64,000 nt of DNA from an uncultured Poribacteria bacterium (GTDB lineage Bacteria > Poribacteria > WGA-4E > WGA-3G). Below, in pieces: positions 50,050 to 64,000 of the stretch. Within the stretch, counting starts at the first letter, position 1. Every line of letters starts with the position of its first letter. The position numbers were made by a program, and so were the translations under genes. The notes below the pieces were generated by a model. That model saw only the letters and a list, made by a program, of their open reading frames with translations, searched no databases and was not told where the DNA came from. The DNA lies in NCBI GenBank assembly GCA_958296135.2, contig CATQHZ020000001.1, forward strand, positions 2,560,001-2,624,000. The letters are read 5' to 3'.

Positions 50050-52599
50050 CTAATTCCCCTGCAACTTCGCCGAAATTTCCGGGAACTCCTGCTCACTGAA
50101 CACTAACTGAAAGATAGCCGGCGCGTCCCCTTCATGAACCGTCATCGTGCCAGCAGTGTTGAATGCACCCTCCAACGTCTTCAACACCTTCTCCTTATAC
50201 CGCGTGTCCACGTTACCACGCAGATGCTCTCCCTTCGTCTCGAAAATCAGCAGCCGCGTCTCACCCGCGATCTGCCCCGCCACCGCGACGAAATCCGGAT
50301 AGATACGCTCCTGTTTCCACCCCTGCACGTAATACGAACCCTGTTGCCGCGCCGCCACCCGATGCCACCAACGCAACGCCTGCTCCTCATCAAGGTAGCA
50401 TGCAAAACGCTTTTCCAACTCAGAATCGAAATAACGCGCGAAGACCGGCTCAAAAAGGCTTAACTGCACCGGTTGGAAATCCTGCCGCGTCAACACCGGC
50501 TCATTAGGACTCACCAATAAGTCGTATTGCTCCACCATGCGGAAATTAGGCTCCCCCATCTCCAAGTCAAAGCGGATTTCACCAGCGTTCAGTTTTTTCC
50601 GAAAACACTGCTCCGCCTGTGTTGCCACCTCACTCTTGACATGTTCGCGCAACACATAAGTGAGATGAGTGCGTCGATCGTAGATATCCTCGTCGGTTTC
50701 GCCGTTTTTCTTCAGACTTTCGATAAGTTCCTGAGCGATGCGCGCCGCCTGCCACAGATTCGGCACAATGTCCGACAGCCGGTTCGCAAAATCGGTGACA
50801 CGAACCGTTTTGTCAATCTGCACCTCCTGAGCGGCGTGGAAAACGGGCAACGTCTCCTCCACATCAACGATGGCGGATTGTCGCCTCACGGTAGCGGGTG
50901 CAGAGGCGTTCGGGTCCGGCGGCGCGATAGCCACCCAATCTATTTCCGCCAAGATATGCGCAGCATAACTAAGGGAAATCCACTCGTCGCCCTTTTTATG
51001 GAGCACCATCGGCAGAAACATCTCCTCACCCCGAAATTTCTCGCGGCGTTCCACAGTAATGCGCCTAACCTTGTCTCCCTCTTGCAAGCTTAACTCGCCC
51101 ATCACTTCGTCGCCTAAGCCGGTGAGTCCTTCCGCTTCTAAGCCGTTCTTCACCTGATTGACGACGGTGCCCACCTCGGTGTTGTTGCAGTAGACATAAC
51201 ACCGATTCAGTGCCTCCCGGTTTGTGAGTCGGGCATGCGGCTGCCGCATCACCCGTCCGACCAGCTGCGTAATCGCGCGCTGTGCCTGCGTATTGTCCAA
51301 CATCACTAAGAGATAGGCGAACGGGCAATCCCACCCTTCCATGAGCGCGGATTTGGTGATTATCCATCGCACCGACGAGTATTTGGAGAGCAGGTCTTCG
51401 CGCCCGAGCTCATCGTTGTCGGCGGATTTGACGCGAATCTCTCTCCCGGAAACGCCTAAATTTTTAATGAGATACTCCCGCACATCCTCGGCATGCACGC
51501 GCTTGCCATCGCGCTGATCTCTGCCGGTTCGCTCAACGCGGACAACGGCGATGGGCCGGATATACCGCCCGGTGCGATGCTCAAATACCTTCGCTTCCTT
51601 ATCAAGCTGATCCAACTCATCAACCGCCTGGCCGAGTGTCAATTGCCACTCGGCATTCGGAAAGGCTGTCACCTGCACTGGCAGCTTAATCATCTGCTCT
51701 TTTTTCAGGTCTGGCCCCTCAATATCGACGAGCAGATTGCTAATGCCGCGGTTCGGTGTCGCGGAGAGCTCAATCACGAGGCTCGGGTCAAGCCGACTGA
51801 TAGAACGCGCGAACTCCTCGTTGGCTTCCCGCTTTTTCGCGCCGTATGCCTTATGCGCTTCGTCTAGCACCACGACAGGCCGCAGTATCTTAAACACGTT
51901 GAACAGACTGTGCTTGACGAACCTGCCCTTCTCATGTCGCTCCAGGTCCGGATATTCGTTAAGCAATCGGGCATCGCCGAGGATATCGCCCGGGTTAGGG
52001 AAAAATGTCGGATAACGCCCGGAATCTCGAAACATCCGCAAGAACTCCTTCCCTTTGCGTCGGTTCGCCGCCGGCAACATCAGCAACATCACGCATAGGT
52101 AGTTGGCGACATCGTCTCTGTTGAATACATCTTCCTTTTCCAACACCTTCACGCGGCCCCCACTTGCCTTTTCCAACATCTGGCGATAGGGATGCTGCCG
52201 AGTCCAGAGAGCCGTTCGCGTCTGCTGATAGATGGCACGACTCGGCACTACCCACAATACGAGGCCGGTTTGGCGATGGAGGCGTTCTAGCGCGGCAGCG
52301 GCGAGCAAGGTTTTCCCACCGCCAGTCGGCACTTTGAAGCAGATATGCGGGATGGGACGATTCGCCTCGTCAGTGCGCGATACGTATTCGCCCGCGCTAT
52401 CCGCAACGCCACCTTTCTCAGACAGGTTTTGCCAGGCTTTTTGCGGGTAATTGCTAATTACATCCGGAATCTCATCAATCCCACCCTGTTTCAACGTCTG
52501 GATTAATGTCTCCATCTCATTCCGCGCCTCTTTGACTTCTTCCAACCAACGGCTAAAAGCATCCAGCGCGCTGAGCTGGTAGGTTTTCAATTGCATCAT
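50050..52599 (-). CDS. type III restriction enzyme Res subunit (DEAH helicase + PD-(D/E)XK)
   Basis: PTGGGKT, DEAH, SATP, EGWD, QLVGR, YPDF...FETKG. Confidence 0.9.
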   Translation of the reverse strand: MMQLKTYQLSALDAFSRWLEEVKEARNEMETLIQTLKQGGIDEIPDVISNYPQKAWQNLSEKGGVADSAGEYVSRTDEANRPIPHICFKVPTGGGKTLLAAAALERLHRQTGLVLWVVPSRAIYQQTRTALWTRQHPYRQMLEKASGGRVKVLEKEDVFNRDDVANYLCVMLLMLPAANRRKGKEFLRMFRDSGRYPTFFPNPGDILGDARLLNEYPDLERHEKGRFVKHSLFNVFKILRPVVVLDEAHKAYGAKKREANEEFARSISRLDPSLVIELSATPNRGISNLLVDIEGPDLKKEQMIKLPVQVTAFPNAEWQLTLGQAVDELDQLDKEAKVFEHRTGRYIRPIAVVRVERTGRDQRDGKRVHAEDVREYLIKNLGVSGREIRVKSADNDELGREDLLSKYSSVRWIITKSALMEGWDCPFAYLLVMLDNTQAQRAITQLVGRVMRQPHARLTNREALNRCYVYCNNTEVGTVVNQVKNGLEAEGLTGLGDEVMGELSLQEGDKVRRITVERREKFRGEEMFLPMVLHKKGDEWISLSYAAHILAEIDWVAIAPPDPNASAPATVRRQSAIVDVEETLPVFHAAQEVQIDKTVRVTDFANRLSDIVPNLWQAARIAQELIESLKKNGETDEDIYDRRTHLTYVLREHVKSEVATQAEQCFRKKLNAGEIRFDLEMGEPNFRMVEQYDLLVSPNEPVLTRQDFQPVQLSLFEPVFARYFDSELEKRFACYLDEEQALRWWHRVAARQQGSYYVQGWKQERIYPDFVAVAGQIAGETRLLIFETKGEHLRGNVDTRYKEKVLKTLEGAFNTAGTMTVHEGDAPAIFQLVFSEQEFPEISAKLQGN

Positions 52600-52611
52600 G
52601 GGAATACCTCC

Positions 52612-54297
52612 CTATGTTTCGCGAACGATGTGTGGGAGTTGACAGAAAGTCACCTCCAAATCCATCAAATCGGCAAGTTCTAAGTATTTGGCGGATGCGT
52701 AAACCACCGCTTTTCTGCCGTTCAGCGCACCAGCGGCACTCATGCGTTCCGCCTGCTCCCATTTCAGCACGGACGCGTTGCTCCGTAAATACTCCAAGTC
52801 CGGCTTATACAGCAGATAATGGTCAAATTTATCATCGCTGTAAAAGAGCCCATCCTCATTTTTCGGAGTTAACGCTCCCGGGCCAGCGGAAACGCCAGTA
52901 GTCGTATAGAGCAGATGCGCAGCGAACGACTCATAAGACGGAAGTCCCCCACCGAGGAGCAATTTCTCTATCTCTGTCGGTTTGCCCAACGTGCAGTAGG
53001 TAAAAGAGCCGCCCAATCCTTCGCGCAGGCTGCCGTTTTTAGCATGCGGGACACCGTTGATAACACGGCGCACACGTTCGGCGGTTATCGTGTCCGCATA
53101 CTCCTCGCACTCAACAAGGATAAACTTTCGTTTTCCATCGTCTTCCTTGTTTAAGGATAGCACGGCGTGGGCGGTTGTCCCAGAACCTGCAAACGAGTCA
53201 AGAACAACGTCGTCTGGACCTACGTTTGCAAACCTGATAAGATCCGCAATCAACGGCACCGCTTTGGGGAAATCAAACACACGTTGTTCATCCATCAGCG
53301 CGTTGATGATATTCGTCCCATTCGCAGCAGCGTATTCAGGCTTATACCAGAGTGAGCGGGGTTTTGAAGTGAATGTATCACCGATGTCTGGCCTCACTTT
53401 CGTGATGAGTTGGTAGCCGCTGCGCTCATGAGGGCGCACGATAAGGTCCTGACGATTGTTTTTAACGCGGTCCCGGCCCCATCGCCATACCGCGTCGCTT
53501 CCATCACTGTGGGTAGGAAACAGTTCTGTATCTTCCGGAGAACGTCGGGACAAACTAATTGATAAGTCTGCACCGATATAGATAGGGAAGTATAAATTCG
53601 GGCGGTCTTCACGGTTAGCACTCGTCCCAGACCGAACTAATCCATATCCTTCCTTGTAATAACCAAGCTCATCTTGTTTCCAATCCTCCGGGTCTTCATT
53701 CGCGGGCAAGCGAGCGAGGCTGACTTGGTTGACATTCTTCGCGAAGACGTGAATGTACTCAGTTACCTGCGTCATCCATCGGCCAGGCAGCGCACCGAGA
53801 TTCTGAACGTAAATCAGAGTGCCGATGAAATTTTGTTCCCCGAAGATTTCTTCTAAACTCGCCAAAAGCCGCCACTGCTCATGGTCATCAATTGACACAA
53901 AAATGACTCCATCTTCCGAGAGCAACTCTCGCAGCAAGTGAAGACGTGGCCACAACATGCACAGCCACTTGTCATGCCGCTCCATGTCTTCCCCATCAAC
54001 AGGTTTGTTCTCTTCAAGCCATGCCTGCATCAACGGGCTGTTTACCCGGTCGTTGTAGACCCAGTCTTGGCTGCCTGTATTATAGGGCGGATCGATGTAG
54101 ATGCACTTCACGCGATTCGCATAGCGCGGCAATAACGCCTTCAGCGCGTAAAGGTTGTCCCCATGGATAATGAGGTTATCTTCGGCAAACCCAGATGGGT
54201 TGCAAGAACGGGCCTCGTCCGGTTCAATCGGGCGATACGGGACCGTGAGGTGATGCGCGTAGATATTATGTTTGCCTTTGAATTCAAGGGTTGGCAT
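52612..54297 (-). CDS. type III Mod DNA adenine methyltransferase
   Basis: IHGDNL, DPPY, FPK, DSFAGSGTT. Confidence 0.92.
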   Translation of the reverse strand: MPTLEFKGKHNIYAHHLTVPYRPIEPDEARSCNPSGFAEDNLIIHGDNLYALKALLPRYANRVKCIYIDPPYNTGSQDWVYNDRVNSPLMQAWLEENKPVDGEDMERHDKWLCMLWPRLHLLRELLSEDGVIFVSIDDHEQWRLLASLEEIFGEQNFIGTLIYVQNLGALPGRWMTQVTEYIHVFAKNVNQVSLARLPANEDPEDWKQDELGYYKEGYGLVRSGTSANREDRPNLYFPIYIGADLSISLSRRSPEDTELFPTHSDGSDAVWRWGRDRVKNNRQDLIVRPHERSGYQLITKVRPDIGDTFTSKPRSLWYKPEYAAANGTNIINALMDEQRVFDFPKAVPLIADLIRFANVGPDDVVLDSFAGSGTTAHAVLSLNKEDDGKRKFILVECEEYADTITAERVRRVINGVPHAKNGSLREGLGGSFTYCTLGKPTEIEKLLLGGGLPSYESFAAHLLYTTTGVSAGPGALTPKNEDGLFYSDDKFDHYLLYKPDLEYLRSNASVLKWEQAERMSAAGALNGRKAVVYASAKYLELADLMDLEVTFCQLPHIVRET

Positions 54298-54434
54298 AGT
54301 CAAATTCCTCCCGAAAAATCCGCGAATTGTCAAAACACTTCTTAAAGTTTAACACACCTTTGCATGAAATGTCAAGCAATTTGTGAAGTAATTTTCACCG
54401 GAAATCTCCTAATCCTGCAGCAAGAGACAGAACA

Positions 54435-54905: not shown

Positions 54906-55078
54906 AGTTTCTCCTCCTCATCGAAAATCGCACTTGGCCCGTAGAGCGGGGACCTGTCCCCACCCCGGTAGGAGAGACCTCCCGCGTCTCGAATATCCTT
55001 AAATGATGTGACACAAAATTTGTAATTTTGGTATAATGCATCAACAATCAACTCTCTAATGCAGAAGGATACGCAAAC

Positions 55079-55906
55079 ATGAAATTTGCACGTGAAGAAA
55101 TTTTAGCCAAATTGCGCGCCAATATTGACGCAGGCAAACCGATTATCGGCGCAGGTGCCGGCACCGGCATCTCCGCTAAATGCGAGGCGGCCGGCGGCAT
55201 CGACCTGATTATTATCTACAACTCCGGCAGATTCCGCATGGCTGGCAGAGGCTCTCTCGCCGGCATGATGCCCTACGGTGACGCAAACCAGATTGTCGTG
55301 GAGATGGCCAGCGAAGTACTACCCGTCGTCCAAAACACGCCGGTTCTCGCAGGCGTTTGTGGGACAGACCCGTTTCGGCTCATGGATGTCTTCTTGAAGC
55401 AGATAGATGCCATCGGGTTCTCCGGCGTTCAGAACTTCCCCACCGTCGGGCTGATTGACGGCACCTTCCGCCAACTTCTGGAGGAAACCGACATGGGATA
55501 CGGACCGGAAGTGGCGATGATCCGCACCGCGCACGAAATGAATCTGCTCACTACGCCCTATGCCTTCAACGCCACAGAAGCGGAGCAGATGGCAGACGCA
55601 GGCGCGGATATCCTCGTCGCGCACATGGGACTAACCACGAAAGGCTCCATCGGCGCGAAGACCGCGCTCACGCTTGAGGATGCCGCCAAGCGCGTGCAAA
55701 CAATCCACGACGCAGCAAAGGGGGTCAACCCCGAAACTCTCGTCATCTGCCACGGCGGCCCCATCGCTGAACCCGAAGACGCTAGTTACGTCTTGGAGAA
55801 TACCGAGGGCGTTGTCGGATTCTACGGCGCATCTAGTGCCGAACGCCTCCCCACAGAACGCGCGATTACTGCACAGATCGAGGCGTTTAAAGCAATTCGT
55901 TTCTGA
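55079..55906 (+). CDS. PEP hydrolase-like TIM-barrel protein
   Basis: [37 protein letters not shown]. Confidence 0.9.
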
Positions 55907-56044
55907 GTACCTGCGGATGTCTCTATCCGCCCGTATGGCTCGCCAGAAATGCCCCGGTTGTTTCCCTAATTTTCATCTGAGCCTGAAAAGAAAACTGGCA
56001 TCCAACCTGCAGAAAGCATCTCAATATAAGGAGGAACTAACCCC

Positions 56045-56845
56045 ATGACTGACGAAGAAAAATTTCGCTTTGACCTGACAGGATTTCTCGTCCGGCCCGC
56101 GATTTTAAGCCGCGCCGAGGTTGACGCAATCGTAGACCAGATTGACAGAATCCACCATAATCCCGAATCGCTGCCGCCAGAGCATCGCGCTGTGCCGGGA
56201 GGCCCCGCGAGCGTCCTCATCGATCATCCCAAGGTCATCGATGTTTTGCACGAGATCATCGGCCCCGATATCCGACTTGAAAGCAGCGCCGCGGTGTGGA
56301 GGAAACAGGGGCAAGAGCACGGCGGCCTCCACGGCGGCGGACCGGGCCAAGCAGACCCGATTTTCGGGTATCGCGTTAACAACGGCCGTATTCACGCCGG
56401 AATGGTGCGCGTCGTTTTTGAACTCACCGATGTTACCAAAGACGACGGCGCGACGCATTTTATCGCCGGCAGTCATAAGTCAAACTTCCCAATGCATCCA
56501 GACCACCTGTCATTAGAGGCCGGCAAACGCAGCCCGTTTCTGACCACTTATGAATGCCCGGCGGGGAGTGCCATTTTCTTTACAGAGAATTTGTGTCACG
56601 CCGGCCCGGTGTGGCAGCGTGACACGCCGCGCGTCGCCGTGTTGAACGCCTACGCGCATCTCGCGACACATTGGCATCGGCTGCGCATTCCGCCGGAAGT
56701 GCTTTTGGCATTGCCACGAGAGAAGCAGGCATACTTCCGTGAACCGTGGATCGCCGATTTCCGCACGCGTCCAGCAACGCATAACACCATCGAAAGGTTC
56801 CTCCAAAACGATGAACCGCCGGTTAACACCGATCATCAGCCGTGA
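56045..56845 (+). CDS. PhyH-family Fe/2OG enzyme with HGG instead of HxD
   Basis: FDLTGFL, LHGG, DGAT..IAGSHK, HAG, R. Confidence 0.8.
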   Translation: MTDEEKFRFDLTGFLVRPAILSRAEVDAIVDQIDRIHHNPESLPPEHRAVPGGPASVLIDHPKVIDVLHEIIGPDIRLESSAAVWRKQGQEHGGLHGGGPGQADPIFGYRVNNGRIHAGMVRVVFELTDVTKDDGATHFIAGSHKSNFPMHPDHLSLEAGKRSPFLTTYECPAGSAIFFTENLCHAGPVWQRDTPRVAVLNAYAHLATHWHRLRIPPEVLLALPREKQAYFREPWIADFRTRPATHNTIERFLQNDEPPVNTDHQP

Positions 56846-56900
56846 TAGAAAGCCTTCTTAACACGTAGGGCGAGGGCCTGTCCCTCGCCCTACGTTATTA

Positions 56901-57908
56901 TTAGGGACGCTCCATCGGTACGACAATTTCACCTGAAATTATCCGCGCCTTCAGAGCCTCAACCTGCTCCACTATCTCCGCAGAGAGTTGTTCATCGGGC
57001 GCATAATTAACGCCGCCTTCCGCGAGGCCAGGAGAGTGAATCCCGGGTGTAAAGTTTCCCGCCGCGAAATCGCTGATAACACGATACGCATCGGTATCAA
57101 TTCCCACGAGCAGACTCGTTAAGACAACCTCCGGTGCGGCATAGTTAACATCCATGAAAGTCCAGATGACAAACCGGTCTTCGCCTGCTTGCGCCGCTTC
57201 AATCGCCCCAAACCCGGCGGAATCTGCCATAGAGTAAATGACATCAACGCCGTTTTCATAGTGGTCTAAGGCGATGGTTTTCGCCACATCGGGTTGATAG
57301 AACCCTTGCGCGTTGTCGGCAACATAGCCGATGAGCACCTCTGCCTCTGGATTGACAGCTTTCACACCGGCCACGTAGCCAGCTCCATACTGATACAACC
57401 CGGGCACGTCAGCACCGCCAAGGTAGCCGACTTTTCCTGTCTTTGACGTGAATGCAGCAATCGCGCCGACGAGGAAGGCAGCCTCGTTTGCTTTATACGT
57501 GAAAGAGGCGACGTTGGGCAAGTCAACCGCACCGATAAAAATGACGAACTTGACATCAGGGAACTCCGGTGCCACGCGTGCAAGGGGCTCGCTCATTTGG
57601 AAGCCGGACGTAATCACGAGCCCGGACTGCTGTGCGGCTGCGCGCAGCCGCATCTCCCATGTCTCCGCGTCGCTCTCTACCTCAGTAATTTCAACGCCGC
57701 CCTCGGCTCTCGCTTTTTGCACGCCGTGATAAAGCACATCGCAGAAAGAGGAGTCGCCGAGGCAATCGCCGGGATACACGACGCTCACCTGCATCGGCGC
57801 GCTTGCAGGCTCAGAAAGGATGACTTCCTGCGCCCGCTGGCAACCATAAATACCGAGGAAAACAACGGTTAAAACGATAACGTTCATCAATAAATGCAGA
57901 TTCTTCAT
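56901..57908 (-). CDS. BMP family ABC substrate-binding lipoprotein
   Basis: Lipobox IYGC, D.SF, APEFPDVKF, EAAFLVG, SKTGKVGYLGG. Confidence 0.9.
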   Translation of the reverse strand: MKNLHLLMNVIVLTVVFLGIYGCQRAQEVILSEPASAPMQVSVVYPGDCLGDSSFCDVLYHGVQKARAEGGVEITEVESDAETWEMRLRAAAQQSGLVITSGFQMSEPLARVAPEFPDVKFVIFIGAVDLPNVASFTYKANEAAFLVGAIAAFTSKTGKVGYLGGADVPGLYQYGAGYVAGVKAVNPEAEVLIGYVADNAQGFYQPDVAKTIALDHYENGVDVIYSMADSAGFGAIEAAQAGEDRFVIWTFMDVNYAAPEVVLTSLLVGIDTDAYRVISDFAAGNFTPGIHSPGLAEGGVNYAPDEQLSAEIVEQVEALKARIISGEIVVPMERP

Positions 57909-57929
57909 AATTTCTCCTTATAACGTGAA

Positions 57930-58575
57930 AAAATAGTTTGCATTTTTTCCGTTGAATAGGGTATACTAATTAACAAACGATTTTAACATATTCCACGCCG
58001 AAAGGCAAGAGCGATTTTTTCAGCCATATATGTCAAAACAGACAGCCTTGCGCCCGGCATCGGGTGAGGAAGGAGTTTGTGTCAACGATGCAGAAACAGG
58101 GCATCTATGAGCAGATGGTGCGAGTCCTAGAGAACCATGGCGGGCTGATATTATCACATATCGCTATCTTCGCCTTCTATGGGTATCTGTTTCTCGCACA
58201 TTGGAAACCTAATAGCGGACTGGTGAAACTGCTGCAAGCGCACGGCAGCACCGCACAAGTTGTCTCAATTGCAGCCGTCTTGACAGCCGCATGACTTACA
58301 TGGTGGGGTGAAAAAGTGTTATTTCGACTGAAGGAACGCGAGCGGTTGGCGCACTTAGAAGACCGCGTCGCCGAACTAGAACCTCTGGCTGCCAAAGTCC
58401 CGCTGCTAGAACAGCAGAACGCCGAAAAGGACGCGCGCCTTGCTGAACAGGCCGCGCGCCTTGCTGAACTGGAAAACCAGAAGGCACCGACGCAGCCGGA
58501 GCATCACTAAGGAAAAAGGATTTCTATATCCACCCTTATACCCAATTAACAGGCGGATATGGAAATCCTCCCTTA
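57930..58575. repeat. long direct repeat, copy 1
   Basis: Near-identical to 60760-61427. Confidence 0.95.
58064..58510 (+). CDS. membrane + coiled-coil reading frame split by in-frame TGA (58292)
   Basis: ORFs 58064-58294 and 58316-58510 are in one frame: VLTAA*LTWWGEKVLFRL. Confidence 0.5.
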
Positions 58576-58697
58576 CAATTCATTATCTTCCATCCGAGAA
58601 CTGAATCGTTCTAGTAGAATTGATTTTTTGTTGCGATAGGGCGTAAATATGTGGTAAAATTTATTTATAGAAAGCAACGTCTTGAGGAATAGGAAGG

Positions 58698-60161
58698 ATG
58701 ATGACAGGAAACACCAAACCTACGGATAAACTCCTAGATGTCCAAATTTCTGTGCAGAATTTTGGGCCAATAGAGAAGGCGGAGATTCACCTTCGCCCCT
58801 TAACCGTGTTTGTCGGTGAGAGCAACACCGGTAAAACGTATCTCTCCGCGCTGATTTATGCACTGCATCAGCATTTTGAGGGGTTCCCAGGTTCTCCCTG
58901 GCCTGCCCACACTCTTTTCTTTTTAGAGTCTATCTACCACTATCAGGACTCCTCTTCCTCCACTCAGGCTGCCTTCAAGAAAGAAATTCTGGAGGCACTC
59001 AAAAAATTGAATACGCCTGAGCGGCCGTTCAAGTTTTCGGATTTACCTCAAGGGCTGAGGGGCTTCCTACAGCGTCGTCTGGAAGATTCTGAAAGCTTTG
59101 GAAACCGACTCAAGCGGTGCTTCGATCTGAAGTCTGTTTCAAAATTAGTGCGGTTCTCCGATGGCGCGCGCAACGAACTGAACGTTTTATTGGAGGTTCG
59201 CGAAACCTGTCAAACACGCTGGAATTGTGCATTACAGGATGCCGGATCTGGACTTACTGTTCGTGGATATGTCAACACCAACACCTCCTTTTCCCCAGCC
59301 GAGACAGCGGTGTTTTGGGAGCTATTTGACGTTAACCCTACGGGTTCTCTTTGGGCTCCTGTGAGGCAGACAACAGAAGCGTATTACTTGCCTGCTGCGC
59401 GGAGTGGCATCATGCAAAGCCACGGGGTGATTGCGAGCTCGCTTATAGAGAACGCCACTCGCATCGGTTTGGAACGCTTTCCTGCGATTCCCGCGTTTTC
59501 GGGGATGATAGCGGATTTTCTCAAGTTAATTGTCCGCTATGATGAGCACAACGGCTCTTCGGACGAAATGAGGCGCATCGCCAACGCATTGGAGGACGAG
59601 GTGCTGCGCGGTGAGATACAGGTAAAACGGCCTGTGCCGGAGGGGTACCCGGAATTCCTCTATCACCCGATGAAAACAAATGAGGCACTGCGTCTGAGTC
59701 AATCATCGTCTATGGTATCCGAACTCGCCCCTTTAGTGCTGTTCTTGCGAGGTATCGTTAACCCGGGAGATTTGCTTATCATTGAAGAACCTGAGTCGCA
59801 CCTGCACCCTGGTGCCCAGACCGCGATAGCTCGCACTCTTGCACGTTTGGTCCGAGCGGGAGTGCGTGTAGTTATCACGACGCATAGCGACTGGCTCCTC
59901 CAACAACTCGGAAACCTCATCCGCGAGGGAGAAGCAAATAAACGAAAAAACAGCACACCGGCATCGGCCGATTGGCTAGTCAAGGAAGAGGTTGGCACAT
60001 GGTGGTTCCACCGAGATAAGCCTGTGGAAGAAATCTCGTTTGATCGAATCGAGGGAATAGAGCCACCTGATTACGAAGCAGTTTCCGATACGCTCTATGA
60101 TAGCGCGATTCGCCTCCAGCAACAACTGCTGGAAAAGGAGGCAACCGATGGAATGGAGTGA
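58698..60161 (+). CDS. ABC-type AAA_15/AAA_21 ATPase (defence-associated type)
   Basis: Walker A GESNTGKT, LSQSSSM signature, IIEEPESHLHP, TTHS. Confidence 0.9.
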   Translation: MMTGNTKPTDKLLDVQISVQNFGPIEKAEIHLRPLTVFVGESNTGKTYLSALIYALHQHFEGFPGSPWPAHTLFFLESIYHYQDSSSSTQAAFKKEILEALKKLNTPERPFKFSDLPQGLRGFLQRRLEDSESFGNRLKRCFDLKSVSKLVRFSDGARNELNVLLEVRETCQTRWNCALQDAGSGLTVRGYVNTNTSFSPAETAVFWELFDVNPTGSLWAPVRQTTEAYYLPAARSGIMQSHGVIASSLIENATRIGLERFPAIPAFSGMIADFLKLIVRYDEHNGSSDEMRRIANALEDEVLRGEIQVKRPVPEGYPEFLYHPMKTNEALRLSQSSSMVSELAPLVLFLRGIVNPGDLLIIEEPESHLHPGAQTAIARTLARLVRAGVRVVITTHSDWLLQQLGNLIREGEANKRKNSTPASADWLVKEEVGTWWFHRDKPVEEISFDRIEGIEPPDYEAVSDTLYDSAIRLQQQLLEKEATDGME

Positions 60162-60645
60162 GGTTCTTGACGAAATCCGCAAACGGGTGGGCGAAGAGAA
60201 CCTTACGAACTCCTGCGGCGGCGAGGGATGTCGGGTGGATATGACTGATGTCCCGCGTGAGCGGATTGTGGTAGACGTTGAACGTGTGTTTCAAGTCAAC
60301 CGAAGGAGAGGCAAGCGATGCGACCGGATGCTTTTTTACGTTGATACGGCTAGAAGCAAACTCGTTGTCGTCTTAATTGAACTCAAGAGCGGCAACGTCA
60401 ACGCCAGGAAAGTCTCCGAACAATTGCAAAGCGGGGCAAACTTTGCTTCTGGTTTAGTGCCGCCGGATATTGAAACGACTTGCATCCCAGTGGTGTTCCA
60501 CGGCGCGCGAATTCATGATGCACAACTCCCAAAACTGAAACGAGCCGAAATCCGTTTCCATCGCCGGACGTTTCCTATTTGGAAAAGGAAATGTGGTAGA
60601 CGCACCAAAAATCTGGCGAGTGTGCTGAAACTCGCGTCGGCATAA
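60148..60645 (+). CDS. small PD-(D/E)XK-like nuclease
   Basis: KRCD...VLIELKSG, EQL; RBS AAGGAGG; overlaps ATPase stop. Confidence 0.65.
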   Translation: MEWSEVLDEIRKRVGEENLTNSCGGEGCRVDMTDVPRERIVVDVERVFQVNRRRGKRCDRMLFYVDTARSKLVVVLIELKSGNVNARKVSEQLQSGANFASGLVPPDIETTCIPVVFHGARIHDAQLPKLKRAEIRFHRRTFPIWKRKCGRRTKNLASVLKLASA

Positions 60646-60759
60646 TACCAATAGGACTGACGCAGACCCAACCCGGTACAAACCAATGCATCGAGACGTT
60701 AATGCGCAAGGTTAGTTGGATTCGTGGCAAACTTGAAGGACGCAACGAGTCAAAAAGTG

Positions 60760-61427
60760 AAAATAGTTTGCATTTTCCCGTTGAATAGGGTATACTAATT
60801 AGCAAACGATTTTAACATATTCCACGCCGAAAGGCAAGAGCGATTTTTTCAGCCATATATGTCAAAACAGACAGCCTTGCGCCCGGCATCGGGTGAGGAA
60901 GGAGTTTGTGTCAACAATGCAGAAACGTGGCATCTATGAGCAGATGGTGCGAGTCCTAGAGAACCATGGCGGGCTGATATTATCACATATCGCTATCTTC
61001 GCCTTCTATGGGTATCTGTTTCTCGCACATTGGAAACCGAATAGCGGGCTGGTAACATTGCTGCAAGCGCACGGCAGCACCGCACAAGTTGTCTCAATTG
61101 CAGCAGTTTTGACAGCCGCATGACTTACAGGGTGGGGTGAAAAAGTGTTATTTCGACTGAAGGAACGCGAGCGGTTGGCGCACTTAGAAGACCGCGTCGC
61201 CGAACTGGAACCTCTGGCTGCAAAAGTCCCGCTGCTAGAACAGCAGAACGCCGAAAAGGACGCGCGCAACGCTGAACTGGTAGCGCGCAACGCCGAACTG
61301 GTAGCGCGTAACACCGCATTGGAAAACCAGAAGGCACCAACGCAACCGGAGCATCACTAAGGAAAAAGGGATTTCTATATCCACCCTTATACCCAAATTA
61401 ACAGGCGGATATGGAAATCCTCCCTTA
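60760..61427. repeat. long direct repeat, copy 2
   Basis: Near-identical to 57930-58575, with a 21 bp repeat expansion. Confidence 0.95.
60893..61360 (+). CDS. second copy of the TGA-split membrane/coiled-coil frame
   Basis: VLTAA*LTGWGEKVLFRL; TGA at 61121. Confidence 0.5.
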
Positions 61428-61503
61428 TAAGCGAGAAACCGAAAGAGGCCTGCTTACTTAAAGGACAAGAAACGCTCGCCCAACGCATTGCGAAAAACGA
61501 AAA

Positions 61504-64000
61504 ATGAACATTCTACACGAACTCAACGAAAAACAGAAACAAGCAGTCACGCATCAAGACGGACCGCTACTCGTCATCGCGGGGCCCGGCACCGGGAAAA
61601 CAAAAGTCATCACGCACCGCATCGCCTACCTCATCCGCCAACACGGCGTGAGACCGGAGCAAATCCTCGCAATCACGTTCACCAATAAGGCGGCGCAAGA
61701 AATGCAGGAACGAGTCAACCGCGAGATTGGCGCGCCGCACGGCTCCAACGTCAAGGTCTGCACCTTCCACGCGTTTTGCGTCCGAGTGCTACGAAAGCAC
61801 GCCGCCGCAATCGGGTTGAGCGAAAACTTCACTATTTTCGACCAGGAGATTCAAGACGAACTCTTCACCGAAGCAGTCCGCGAACTCATACTCGATCCTG
61901 ACGAATATCCGCCTTGGATGCTGCGGAATATCATCAGCACCGCCAAAGGCAAACTCGGCGACGTTGGATTCTGTCGGGAGGATGGCACGCCGATCGAGGA
62001 TACAACCCAGATTGCCGATATCGGTAGCGTGGCAAAGGCATATCAACGCAAACTTGATGCATACAACGCACTAGACTTCGACGATCTGCTGGCAAAAACG
62101 GTCACCTTGCTTGAACAAGCACCGGCCGTGCAGAAAACCTATCATCAGGACATCCGCCATATCCTCGTGGACGAGTATCACGATGTGAACGGCGTGCAGT
62201 ATCGCCTATTGCAACTGTTGTGCGCGCCGCCATCCCGAAACCTGATGGTAGTCGCCGATGAAGACCAGGCTATCTACAGCTGGCGCGGTTCCAACCCGCA
62301 ATATATCGCCGATTTCACCGCCGAGTTTGAGCCGCGCGTCATTCATTTAGACGAGCACTATCGCTGCAGCGAGAAAATCTTGCGCGCCGCAGAAGAAGTC
62401 ATATCAAAAAATGCGGAACGCCAAAATCGGCACACACTGAAAACCCACGAAGGCGTAGGACGCGACATCTTCCATTATACCTTCACAACGCAGGTTGAGG
62501 AGGCACAGCGCATCATCCAGATTATCCGAAAACTGATCGCGCAGCGGAATTACTCCTATCGGGAAATCGCGATTTTCTACCGTCAGCATAAACTCGCGAA
62601 CGTCTTGGAAGAGCAGCTGACCAAGGAAAACATTGAATTCCAGCGAATCCAACCCACCAACGCGTTTCAGGCAGAGAACACCAAAGCCATCGTCGCTTAC
62701 CTCAGCTTCGCGCAGTGGCAAATCCCGCGAGACTTAGAACTCGCCATCAGTTTCCCTGAAAAACGGATTGACGATTTGACGTGGGTGCGACTCAAGTGGC
62801 TCGCCCAACGCGAACGCATTCCGTTGGTAGAACTGCTGAAAAATATTGACGCATACCCCAAAGATGTCGGCCCATTAACCCGCCGAAATGTGAAGCAGTT
62901 TTGGGCGCAACTTGACGAATTGATGGCGGGAATGGACGATGAACGGCCAGCTAAAATCGTTCAGAAGTTGTTTGACATCCTGGAACATTCTCGTTCACCT
63001 TACCGCGAGGAAGAAGTCGCTGACATCGAGAAGCACCCGGTGAACGCAAACCTCAATATCGCCCGCGATGTCCTCTACAGCGCGATTGATGGAAGCGAAC
63101 GCATCCAGATTACCGCCGCTTACGGCATCGACGCGTACTGTGCCGCGCATATCCTCCGGCAGACACTGGAGACGTATCTCGCGCAGCCCGTTCACATCCG
63201 ATTCCTCCCGGTAGAAGAGCCCTCCCGGTCGCGACAACCCGCCTCTCCCCCGGAAGGTACCGATGTCCACCTGCTCATCGGTGCTCTTGTAGCAGACGCG
63301 AACACCGCCGCGAGGACAATTCTGATTGGCAACGCCACCGCCACAGACGACAGCGCGATTCACCTGCAACCCGATGGGGCACTGAGCATCACCGCGCTGG
63401 CATTATGCCAACGCCTGATTGGCCGCTTTGAAAGCCCAAACATGGCAGATATGGTTGTCTATGACTTGGAGACAACAGGAATTAAGCCGAAAACTGCCCA
63501 GATTGTTGAGATAGGCGCGCACCGACTCAGTGCCATTGGAGACGAGGTGGACAAGTTCTATCGCTTGGTGAAACCACCGGGCGGACACATCCCGCGGGCA
63601 AGCACCAACGTCCACGGAATTGACGAGGCAACTGTCAAAGACTCGCCGAGTATTGAGACAGTGCTTCCGGAATTCTGTCAATTCATCCGGGACAGGATTC
63701 TGATAGGCCACAACGTCGCGAAATTTGATAACCCTATCCTTGAACGCGACCTGCGCGAGCACCTGAAGATGGAGTTTCGCAATCCTTATTACGATACGCT
63801 TGTCACCGCGAGACGGCTTTTCCCGCGGGAACGGTGTAACATTAAGGCACTCGCCGATAGGTTCGGCATCCCGCACGGCCGCTTACACAACGCGCTTGAT
63901 GACATTGCGGCGAACCGCGAAATCTTCAAGACATTAATTCAACTAGATTCACACAAGCGCGAGATAACGTCGTTAACGGAACTTCTACCGTTTGTCGGGC
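61504..64000 (+). CDS. UvrD/PcrA helicase fused to a degenerate RecJ-like segment and DEDDh exonuclease (runs off window)
   Basis: ATG 61504: AGPGTGKT, FTNKAA, VDEYHD, YRC; later YDLETTG, HNVAKFD, HNALDD. Confidence 0.88.
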   Translation, partial: MNILHELNEKQKQAVTHQDGPLLVIAGPGTGKTKVITHRIAYLIRQHGVRPEQILAITFTNKAAQEMQERVNREIGAPHGSNVKVCTFHAFCVRVLRKHAAAIGLSENFTIFDQEIQDELFTEAVRELILDPDEYPPWMLRNIISTAKGKLGDVGFCREDGTPIEDTTQIADIGSVAKAYQRKLDAYNALDFDDLLAKTVTLLEQAPAVQKTYHQDIRHILVDEYHDVNGVQYRLLQLLCAPPSRNLMVVADEDQAIYSWRGSNPQYIADFTAEFEPRVIHLDEHYRCSEKILRAAEEVISKNAERQNRHTLKTHEGVGRDIFHYTFTTQVEEAQRIIQIIRKLIAQRNYSYREIAIFYRQHKLANVLEEQLTKENIEFQRIQPTNAFQAENTKAIVAYLSFAQWQIPRDLELAISFPEKRIDDLTWVRLKWLAQRERIPLVELLKNIDAYPKDVGPLTRRNVKQFWAQLDELMAGMDDERPAKIVQKLFDILEHSRSPYREEEVADIEKHPVNANLNIARDVLYSAIDGSERIQITAAYGIDAYCAAHILRQTLETYLAQPVHIRFLPVEEPSRSRQPASPPEGTDVHLLIGALVADANTAARTILIGNATATDDSAIHLQPDGALSITALALCQRLIGRFESPNMADMVVYDLETTGIKPKTAQIVEIGAHRLSAIGDEVDKFYRLVKPPGGHIPRASTNVHGIDEATVKDSPSIETVLPEFCQFIRDRILIGHNVAKFDNPILERDLREHLKMEFRNPYYDTLVTARRLFPRERCNIKALADRFGIPHGRLHNALDDIAANREIFKTLIQLDSHKREITSLTELLPFVG

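Follow-up and report, generated by a model that had tools for sequence, protein, structure and literature searches.

The DNA analysed here is a 64,000-nucleotide (nt) window of the 5.19-Mb genome of an uncultured sponge symbiont, a Candidatus Poribacteria bacterium (G000; the window is G000:C1:2560001-2624000, and positions below are those of the window unless stated otherwise). Near its right-hand end, between a gene for a BMP/PnrA-like substrate-binding lipoprotein and a gene for a UvrD/PcrA-type helicase, lies a cassette of two overlapping genes, the first encoding an ABC-type ATPase and the second a protein that we read as a small PD-(D/E)XK nuclease. The cassette is enclosed by two direct repeats on the + strand, a left copy of 649 nt (57930..58578) and a right copy of 671 nt (60760..61430), each of which carries a 95-nt divergent promoter region, a leader, a small gene and a hairpin. 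An earlier note on this DNA had described near-identical direct repeats enclosing an ABC ATPase gene and an overlapping PD-(D/E)XK-like gene. That description is borne out below by the alignment of the two copies, the Pfam assignment of the ATPase, and the predicted fold and conserved residues of its partner. The same note took the pair to be a possibly undescribed defence system that is gained, lost or amplified by recombination between the repeats; a defence role is supported, but neither its novelty as a kind nor its movement through the repeats is.

The ATPase gene (58698..60161, + strand; 487 amino acids [aa]) is preceded by a promoter-like site of its own at 58631..58660 (+ strand; TTGCGA-18-TAAAAT with TG), the sequence of which is conserved in G001 and G002, two relatives from the same genus of which G002 is a sister species. 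Its product matches the Pfam families AAA_15 (PF13175; 1.6e-23) and AAA_21 (PF13304; 2.5e-13), both above the cut-offs. Three blocks are invariant across 35 homologues: G40-S42-N43-T44-G45-K46-T47, I361-I362-E363-E364-P365-E366 and T394-T395-H396-S397, which we take to be the Walker A motif, the acidic Walker B stretch and the H-loop histidine, respectively. With its P-loop motifs and these family matches, the protein belongs to the ABC-type (AAA_15/AAA_21) defence ATPases. Among the PADLOC models its best match is PD-T4-4_A (1.6e-38; PDLC04033, in two stretches), followed by PDC-M47A (2.1e-33), and further matches are to NsnB, AriA (6.8e-25), HEC-02A (5.6e-16), Old (1e-14) and GajA (about 1e-13).

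The partner gene most likely starts at 60145 and not at 60097, because its homologues measure 157 to 171 aa; it then runs to 60645 (+ strand; 165 aa) and therefore overlaps the ATPase gene by 17 nt. Pfam, NCBIfam and PHROGs returned no meaningful family for the partner, and a sequence-profile search of the PDB with a 106-member alignment gave nothing below E 0.1. The AlphaFold (AF2) model, built from 40 homologues, has a predicted local distance difference test score (pLDDT) of 93 and a predicted template modelling score of 0.90. In a structural search of PDB representatives with VIA-align, the top match of this model is the nuclease Can2 (8bao_B; Z 8.4, root-mean-square deviation 3.8, 139 residues aligned). 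Later matches are to Cdn1, VC1899, two further Can2 entries, Can1, R.BspD6I, Upx, a repair endonuclease and several restriction enzymes, and at least 10 of the best 14 rows are nucleases by title. Moreover, D59, E78 and K80 are invariant in the 40 partner sequences; across 106 distant sequences E78 never varies, and conservation of D59 and K80 is 90% or more. The protein thus combines a conserved D...ExK motif with a predicted restriction-endonuclease-like alpha/beta core, as in the PD-(D/E)XK superfamily. Five cysteines (C23, C28, C58, C112 and C149) are also invariant or nearly so.

The best match of the ATPase leads to PD-T4-4 of E. coli. This system (Vassallo et al. 2022, PMC9519451) is described in three papers and consists, like the pair here, of two genes, encoding an AAA_15-type (PF13175) ABC ATPase and a PD-(D/E)XK nuclease. 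The partners of such ATPases are therefore not just HNH or TOPRIM proteins, as the earlier note had held, and the combination found here is already represented among described systems. PD-T4-4 differs from the pair here in its host phylum and in its setting, having been found in an element resembling an integrative and conjugative element (ICE), whereas the pair here lies in no ICE or prophage and belongs to a six-fold paralogous family. Matches to both components of PDC-M47, an untested two-gene candidate in PADLOC-DB v2, are present too, strong for the ATPase (2.1e-33) but weak for the partner (2.4e-5); the name is absent from the searchable literature, which leaves no function to compare. 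HEC-02, described in a preprint (bioRxiv 10.1101/2024.01.29.577857) as an ABC ATPase with a NERD PD-(D/E)XK protein, shares with the pair here an ATPase with variable inserts and a separate effector of the PD-(D/E)XK superfamily. However, HEC-02B does not match the partner, and the pair here stands outside any Hma system. PARIS (AriAB), Septu (PtuAB), Gabija (GajAB) and OLD likewise have an ABC-type ATPase as their first component, but their effectors, according to the earlier note and the literature, are TOPRIM or HNH proteins, unlike the restriction-endonuclease-like partner here. Indeed, the partner matches none of the AriB, PtuB and GajB models (AriB at E<=1), and the TOPRIM (DUF4435) AriB partner of PARIS is missing from the cassette. 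The pair is thus likely a diverged member of the known class of ABC-ATPase plus PD-(D/E)XK defence systems, of the PD-T4-4/PDC-M47 kind, from which we infer a function in defence. It would add to this class a diverged nuclease partner family that Pfam lacks, and automated tools may well miss a pair of such divergence.

The cassette is one of several in the genome. A tblastn search found five further full ATPase-partner pairs in G000, six in all, with ATPases 41-49% and partners 39-60% identical. The six ATPases resemble one another at aa 21-60 and 300-400, and they vary both in length and in sequence within two inserts, aa 61-135 and aa 181-220. It is these regions that, according to a preprint, would determine trigger specificity in ABC-ATPase defences. 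The ATPase here is likely the sensor or regulator subunit. Poribacteria that keep up to six or more paralogous pairs, with ATPases differing mainly in their inserts, offer a natural series for how such sensors gain specificity. The distribution of the family is patchy: the partner profile has matches in 97 of the 121 sampled genomes of the phylum, with 1 to 9 each, and none in 24. A library of 1.84 billion proteins holds 640 representatives of the partner family (clusters at 50% identity) at E<=0.001; a scan of metagenome contigs with the partner gave 111 pattern matches, none of them confirmed. Tandem pairs occur as well, with partner genes about 2 kb apart in G002, G017 and G062. Another G000 pair, at about 2.287-2.289 Mb, is bracketed by a 167-nt direct repeat of 92% identity (L024 4081-4247 and 5928-6094), the downstream copy of which is a stray ATPase 5' fragment of 37 codons, 84% identical to the ATPase in the window; the arrangement appears to be what is left of a tandem cassette.

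Between G000 and G002, the ratio of nonsynonymous to synonymous divergence (dN/dS; a simple Nei-Gojobori estimate for single genes, as for dS below) is 0.24 for the ATPase and 0.25 for the partner, against 0.12 for the BMP gene and 0.09 for the helicase gene, so the pair is maintained, yet its evolution is faster than that of its neighbours. The two proteins may also bind each other: the complex prediction scored 0.33, against 0.00 for the best of three controls. That mark is passed by 116 of 157 solved complexes and by 2 of 215 mismatches, and scores of 0.60 or less among the passers comprise just 18 of the 157 solved complexes, plus both passing mismatches. The prediction runs share at least 89% of contacts, with a partner pLDDT of at least 83, and we take the prediction as weak support for a complex.

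Several observations weigh against the assignment to this class. Foldseek, run against the PDB with the partner model, found nothing at E<=0.001, because of which we rate the fold evidence as moderate, and a Z of 8.4 lies in a range where, by the tool's own warning, the match may reflect a common arrangement. The partner's own PADLOC matches are weak, at 2.4e-5 to PDC-M47B over 52 of 174 profile positions, confined to the catalytic core, and at E 0.023 and 0.044 to PD-T4-4_B, so that it is this core that ties the partner to the B components already described. Finally, just one of the five other pairs, which adjoins Uma2 and an ApaLI-type restriction-modification (R-M) system, has a defence neighbourhood; these pairs otherwise stand alone among ordinary genes such as those for oxidoreductases, DUF1611, TPR and lectin-like proteins. 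In favour of the assignment, 36 of the 40 close members of the partner family and 36 of the 106 distant ones have hits to the PDC-M47B models, and PD-T4-4_B matches 17 of the 40 close members at E<=1 (best 3.5e-5) and 3 of the 106 distant ones at E<=0.001.

By analogy with the class, the hypervariable inserts of the ATPase would likely serve to sense a cue of infection, and the ATPase would hold or release the small nuclease accordingly. The two genes would be translationally coupled and their products probably form a complex, from which the released nuclease would cut nucleic acid and stop either the phage or the cell.

In the alignment of the two repeats, 620 positions match, 28 are mismatched and 24 columns hold gaps, among them a 21-nt indel in the stretch coding for a coiled coil; identity is 95.7% without the gaps and 92.3% when they are counted. 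A repeat search recovered 57944-58243 against 60773-61072 at 97% and three further blocks at 78-97%. The first 95 nt of the left copy are native to the site, being common to G001 and G002 at the same position, and a promoter scan placed a promoter-like site facing the BMP gene at 58008-57980 (- strand) in the left copy and two such sites at 60767-60796 (+) and 60837-60809 (-) in the right one. According to the earlier note, the repeats carry genes of their own. This has to be amended: the two small open reading frames (ORFs) in each copy make up a single gene, of a 147-aa type, that an in-frame TGA interrupts in its second helix. In the left copy this gene spans 58088..58510 (+), with the TGA at 58292-58294; in the right copy it spans 60917..61360 (+), the same TGA is found at 61121-61123, and the coiled-coil part is longer by an insertion of 7 codons. 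Its counterpart in G002, 81% identical to the left-copy gene, is one uninterrupted ORF of 147 aa that encodes two predicted transmembrane (TM) helices and a coiled coil. Three other paralogues in G000 are intact, with a sense codon at the position of the TGA, for which selenocysteine or read-through was considered as an alternative. The left-copy gene is probably a pseudogene or a split gene. The small ORFs matched no family in Pfam, NCBIfam or PHROGs.

Each copy ends in an imperfect palindrome, at 58518..58568 (+) on the left and at 61369..61420 (+) on the right, the latter recovered by a pattern search that gave 2 occurrences in the window where 0 were expected. On folding, the 83-nt stretch 58508-58590 reaches -27.1 kcal/mol (z -6.0; none of 200 shuffles was as good), and the arm motif, which resembles a repetitive extragenic palindrome (REP), is dispersed, with 292 matches in the genome at up to two mismatches. 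Scans of the whole window for tRNAs and Rfam families found 0 genes and 0 families, so the repeats hold no known RNA gene.

Assembly artefact as the source of the duplication, raised as a caution in the earlier note, is ruled out. Short-read contigs from four runs of a single sample, which is probably the genome's own source and so does not count as independent support, span all four repeat borders: from the BMP gene into the left copy (56900-58003), from the end of the left copy across the cassette into the right one (58546-60832) and from there into the helicase gene (61398-62600). In run X1 the copy-specific stretches have depths of 98.5 (58409-58573) and 101.8 (61238-61425), against about 100 in the flanks and 158.9 in the segment common to both copies (57974-58438). 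The duplication is genuine, because contigs cross every repeat border and the copy-specific depth matches that of the flanks. No cassette-skipping (excision) or amplified junction was seen in these contigs; contigs drop rare forms, and the missing junctions therefore show nothing either way. The absence of a transposase or integrase, as the earlier note had it, also holds: none of their Pfam families occurs among 24 proteins scanned (10 + 14) from 44362 to 7.7 kb past the window end, a set that includes four flanking proteins with no Pfam match at all. No inverted repeats of at least 30 nt lie within 55000-64000. The borders thus have neither the transposase or integrase nor the terminal inverted repeats of a composite transposon or integrative island.

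The history of the site can be followed in relatives through the junction between the BMP and helicase genes, a comparison that the earlier note had suggested and that went against gain and loss through the repeats. G002, the sole genome with a close orthologue in the contig scan, has the order BMP-cassette-helicase at the same site, with ATPase and partner 80-81% identical at the protein level and without 650-bp repeats: the 95-nt promoter region stands on the left, a 58-nt copy of it stands before the helicase gene, and REP-like 40-nt units lie on both sides of the cassette. In G002 the small gene is found at a different place, flanked by proB-like and proA-like genes and beside Uma2, and the syntenic site in G000 has none. 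Of the cassette, G001 keeps the 5' leader and, from the partner gene, the final 26 codons; the equivalent of 58693-60577 is gone, by an internal deletion of about 1.9 kb. In an outgroup genus the BMP and helicase genes are 367 nt apart, with one homologous promoter before the helicase gene and no cassette.

Downstream of the partner gene, G001 (L011 1042-1338) and G002 have an intact 98-aa ORF encoding a coiled coil and a C-terminal TM helix. It contains 33-nt tandem repeats (TRETNQRIETL units), has weak coiled-coil matches only in Pfam and PHROGs, and may be a third cassette gene that G000 has lost. Of this gene G000 retains the middle alone (60678..60766, + strand), and the right repeat cuts its 3' side at a shared gtgaaaa(a)atag stretch. 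Because a gene fragment must come from a whole gene, this junction is derived in the G000 lineage. Moreover, the right copy contains nt 59-95 of the promoter region, which in G001 and G002 stand on the BMP side only, and this points to the left copy as the template of the right one. Since the TGA is common to both copies, the duplication came after the nonsense mutation, or the copies have been homogenised since; as they differ by about 4%, the duplication is not very recent. We propose that the repeats are a segmental duplication private to the G000 lineage, outside the defence system. Each repeat would have been assembled from the 95-bp divergent promoter of the site, a nonsense-mutated 2-TM/coiled-coil gene and a REP-like hairpin, and the duplication would have set the second copy before the helicase gene and destroyed the 98-aa gene that follows the cassette. 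Homologous recombination between the repeats could in principle remove or multiply the cassette, although gain and loss in the relatives went otherwise. Mobilisation through the repeats is unproven, and the data can be explained without it.

Combining both parts, we favour with some reserve the view that the cargo is a module of the PD-T4-4/PDC-M47 kind and that the 650-bp repeats are a lineage-specific segmental duplication outside it. Judged from sequence comparison, the polarity of the repeat history is partly resolved and not settled, and here too some points count against us. The order of events rests on three genomes, since G002 alone supplied a close orthologue; G001 is a metagenome-assembled genome of 86% completeness with the locus on a 4-kb contig. 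The helicase genes of G001 and G002 are 86.4% identical in DNA, against 84.6% and 83.4% to G000, and as these two genomes thus look slightly nearer to each other than to G000, loss of the long repeats in their common ancestor is conceivable.

The repeats might instead be the working parts of an integrase-free mobile cassette, with the pair gained, lost or amplified by recombination between the copies, as the earlier note proposed. Their identity of 95.7% over about 650 nt is enough for RecA-type recombination, and short direct repeats, the 58-nt promoter copy and the 40-nt REP-like units, bracket the G002 cassette too. The tandem cassettes of other Poribacteria such as G017 and G062 and the duplicated 167-nt ATPase fragment flanking the 2.29-Mb paralogue point the same way. 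The synonymous divergence (dS) of the cassette between G000 and G002 (0.46 and 0.38 for its two genes) is below that of the BMP (0.73) and helicase (0.84) genes, a hint of exchange between lineages; this halved dS could reflect later exchange or codon-usage effects. Yet the long repeats are found in G000 alone, none of the other five G000 cassettes has such repeats, and four of these five paralogous loci have no flanking direct repeat of even 40 nt. The loss in G001 is a deletion inside the cassette and not between repeats, and no recombinase lies nearby. We consider this explanation unlikely. A related scenario makes the G000 arrangement the original one: a circular DNA with the cassette and a copy of the promoter/small-gene module recombined, in a Campbell-type event, with a module already resident at the site, and the relatives later lost the small gene on both sides. 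A single crossover would yield exactly module-cargo-module, and if G001 and G002 are sisters, one ancestor could carry the losses. Against it stands the left edge of the right copy, which lies inside a gene intact in both relatives and marks the junction as derived in G000. Separate deletions with different end points would also be needed on the two sides, the G002 small gene is at another locus with its own flanks, and both G000 copies have the same nonsense codon, all of which makes this origin rather improbable.

A third alternative concerns the pair itself, which might not be an anti-phage system at all: it might be a selfish, toxin-antitoxin-like addiction module, or an accessory of DNA repair, that became expanded in Poribacteria. 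Six copies per genome, mostly among metabolic genes, would suit such a module; Pfam names AAA_21 for a putative AbiEii toxin of type IV toxin-antitoxin (TA) systems; and a helicase-exonuclease gene adjoins the copy in the window. However, the best PADLOC matches of both proteins are defence or defence-candidate models, a copy number of 0 to 9 together with hypervariable ATPase inserts fits sensors under diversifying pressure, and genomes that lack the cassette conserve the helicase as well. An addiction or repair role thus appears improbable. For the repeats, a lineage-specific duplication carries a caution of its own, namely that a defence cassette may be framed by long direct repeats that arose secondarily in one lineage and are not a mobility device.

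The small gene of the repeats belongs to a family seen, in a search of 41 family genomes with one protein query, in G000 (6 matches) and G002 (7) only. Besides the copies in the window, G000 loci lie near genome positions 4409700-4410161, 3215667-3216029 and 248172-249049 (L029-L031), and G002 loci are L021, L065 and L066. All seven loci examined in the two genomes sit within one to two genes of defence-type genes, against a background that is itself dense in them. The neighbours are a type ISP R-M enzyme with a DEAD helicase, N6_N4 methylases, Uma2, an Eco57I-like methylase, a HEPN-nucleotidyltransferase with a PIN protein, and the ATPase-nuclease cassette described here. Small-gene copies and REP-like hairpins might then be landing pads at which R-M, TA and ATPase-nuclease cassettes are swapped between strains by homology, without a recombinase gene, and the gene family may mark small, variable "defence islets". 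This idea, which we hold to be very improbable, draws on the location of all seven loci near R-M, Uma2, HEPN/PIN or ATPase-nuclease genes and on the lower silent divergence of the cassette. Further study would pay most for the series of paralogues and for the small-gene family.

A type III-like R-M pair, encoding a ResIII/DEAD helicase (849 aa) and an N6_N4 methylase (573 aa), lies about 4 kb upstream of the cassette (50050-54333, - strand). The genome as a whole has an unusually heavy load of restriction-type genes, with 72 N6_N4 DNA methylase matches (68 above the cut-off) and 28 Uma2. This load is consistent with the defence enrichment that abstracts report for sponge symbionts.

On the left flank, the BMP/PnrA-like gene (56901..57908, - strand) encodes 335 aa (Pfam Bmp, 2.5e-53). 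On the right, the helicase gene starts at 61504 (+ strand), runs through the window end at 64000 to G000:C1:2624635 and encodes 1043 aa overall, with Pfam matches to UvrD-helicase (1.1e-81) and RNase_T (3e-31); the latter is a DEDDh exonuclease domain inserted at aa 651-808, ahead of the UvrD_C end. The helicase also matches the PADLOC models GajB and PDC-S48, yet it occurs where the cassette is absent. In other genera it is 65-67% identical, and the BMP gene usually adjoins it there. The spacer between the two genes varies: 367 nt in G006 and G020, 738 nt in G024, 820 nt in G012 and about 2.4 kb in G009, where it holds two minus-strand ORFs of 119 and 285 aa without a Pfam family (L046 2277-3509). 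The BMP-helicase site may be a recurrent insertion point.

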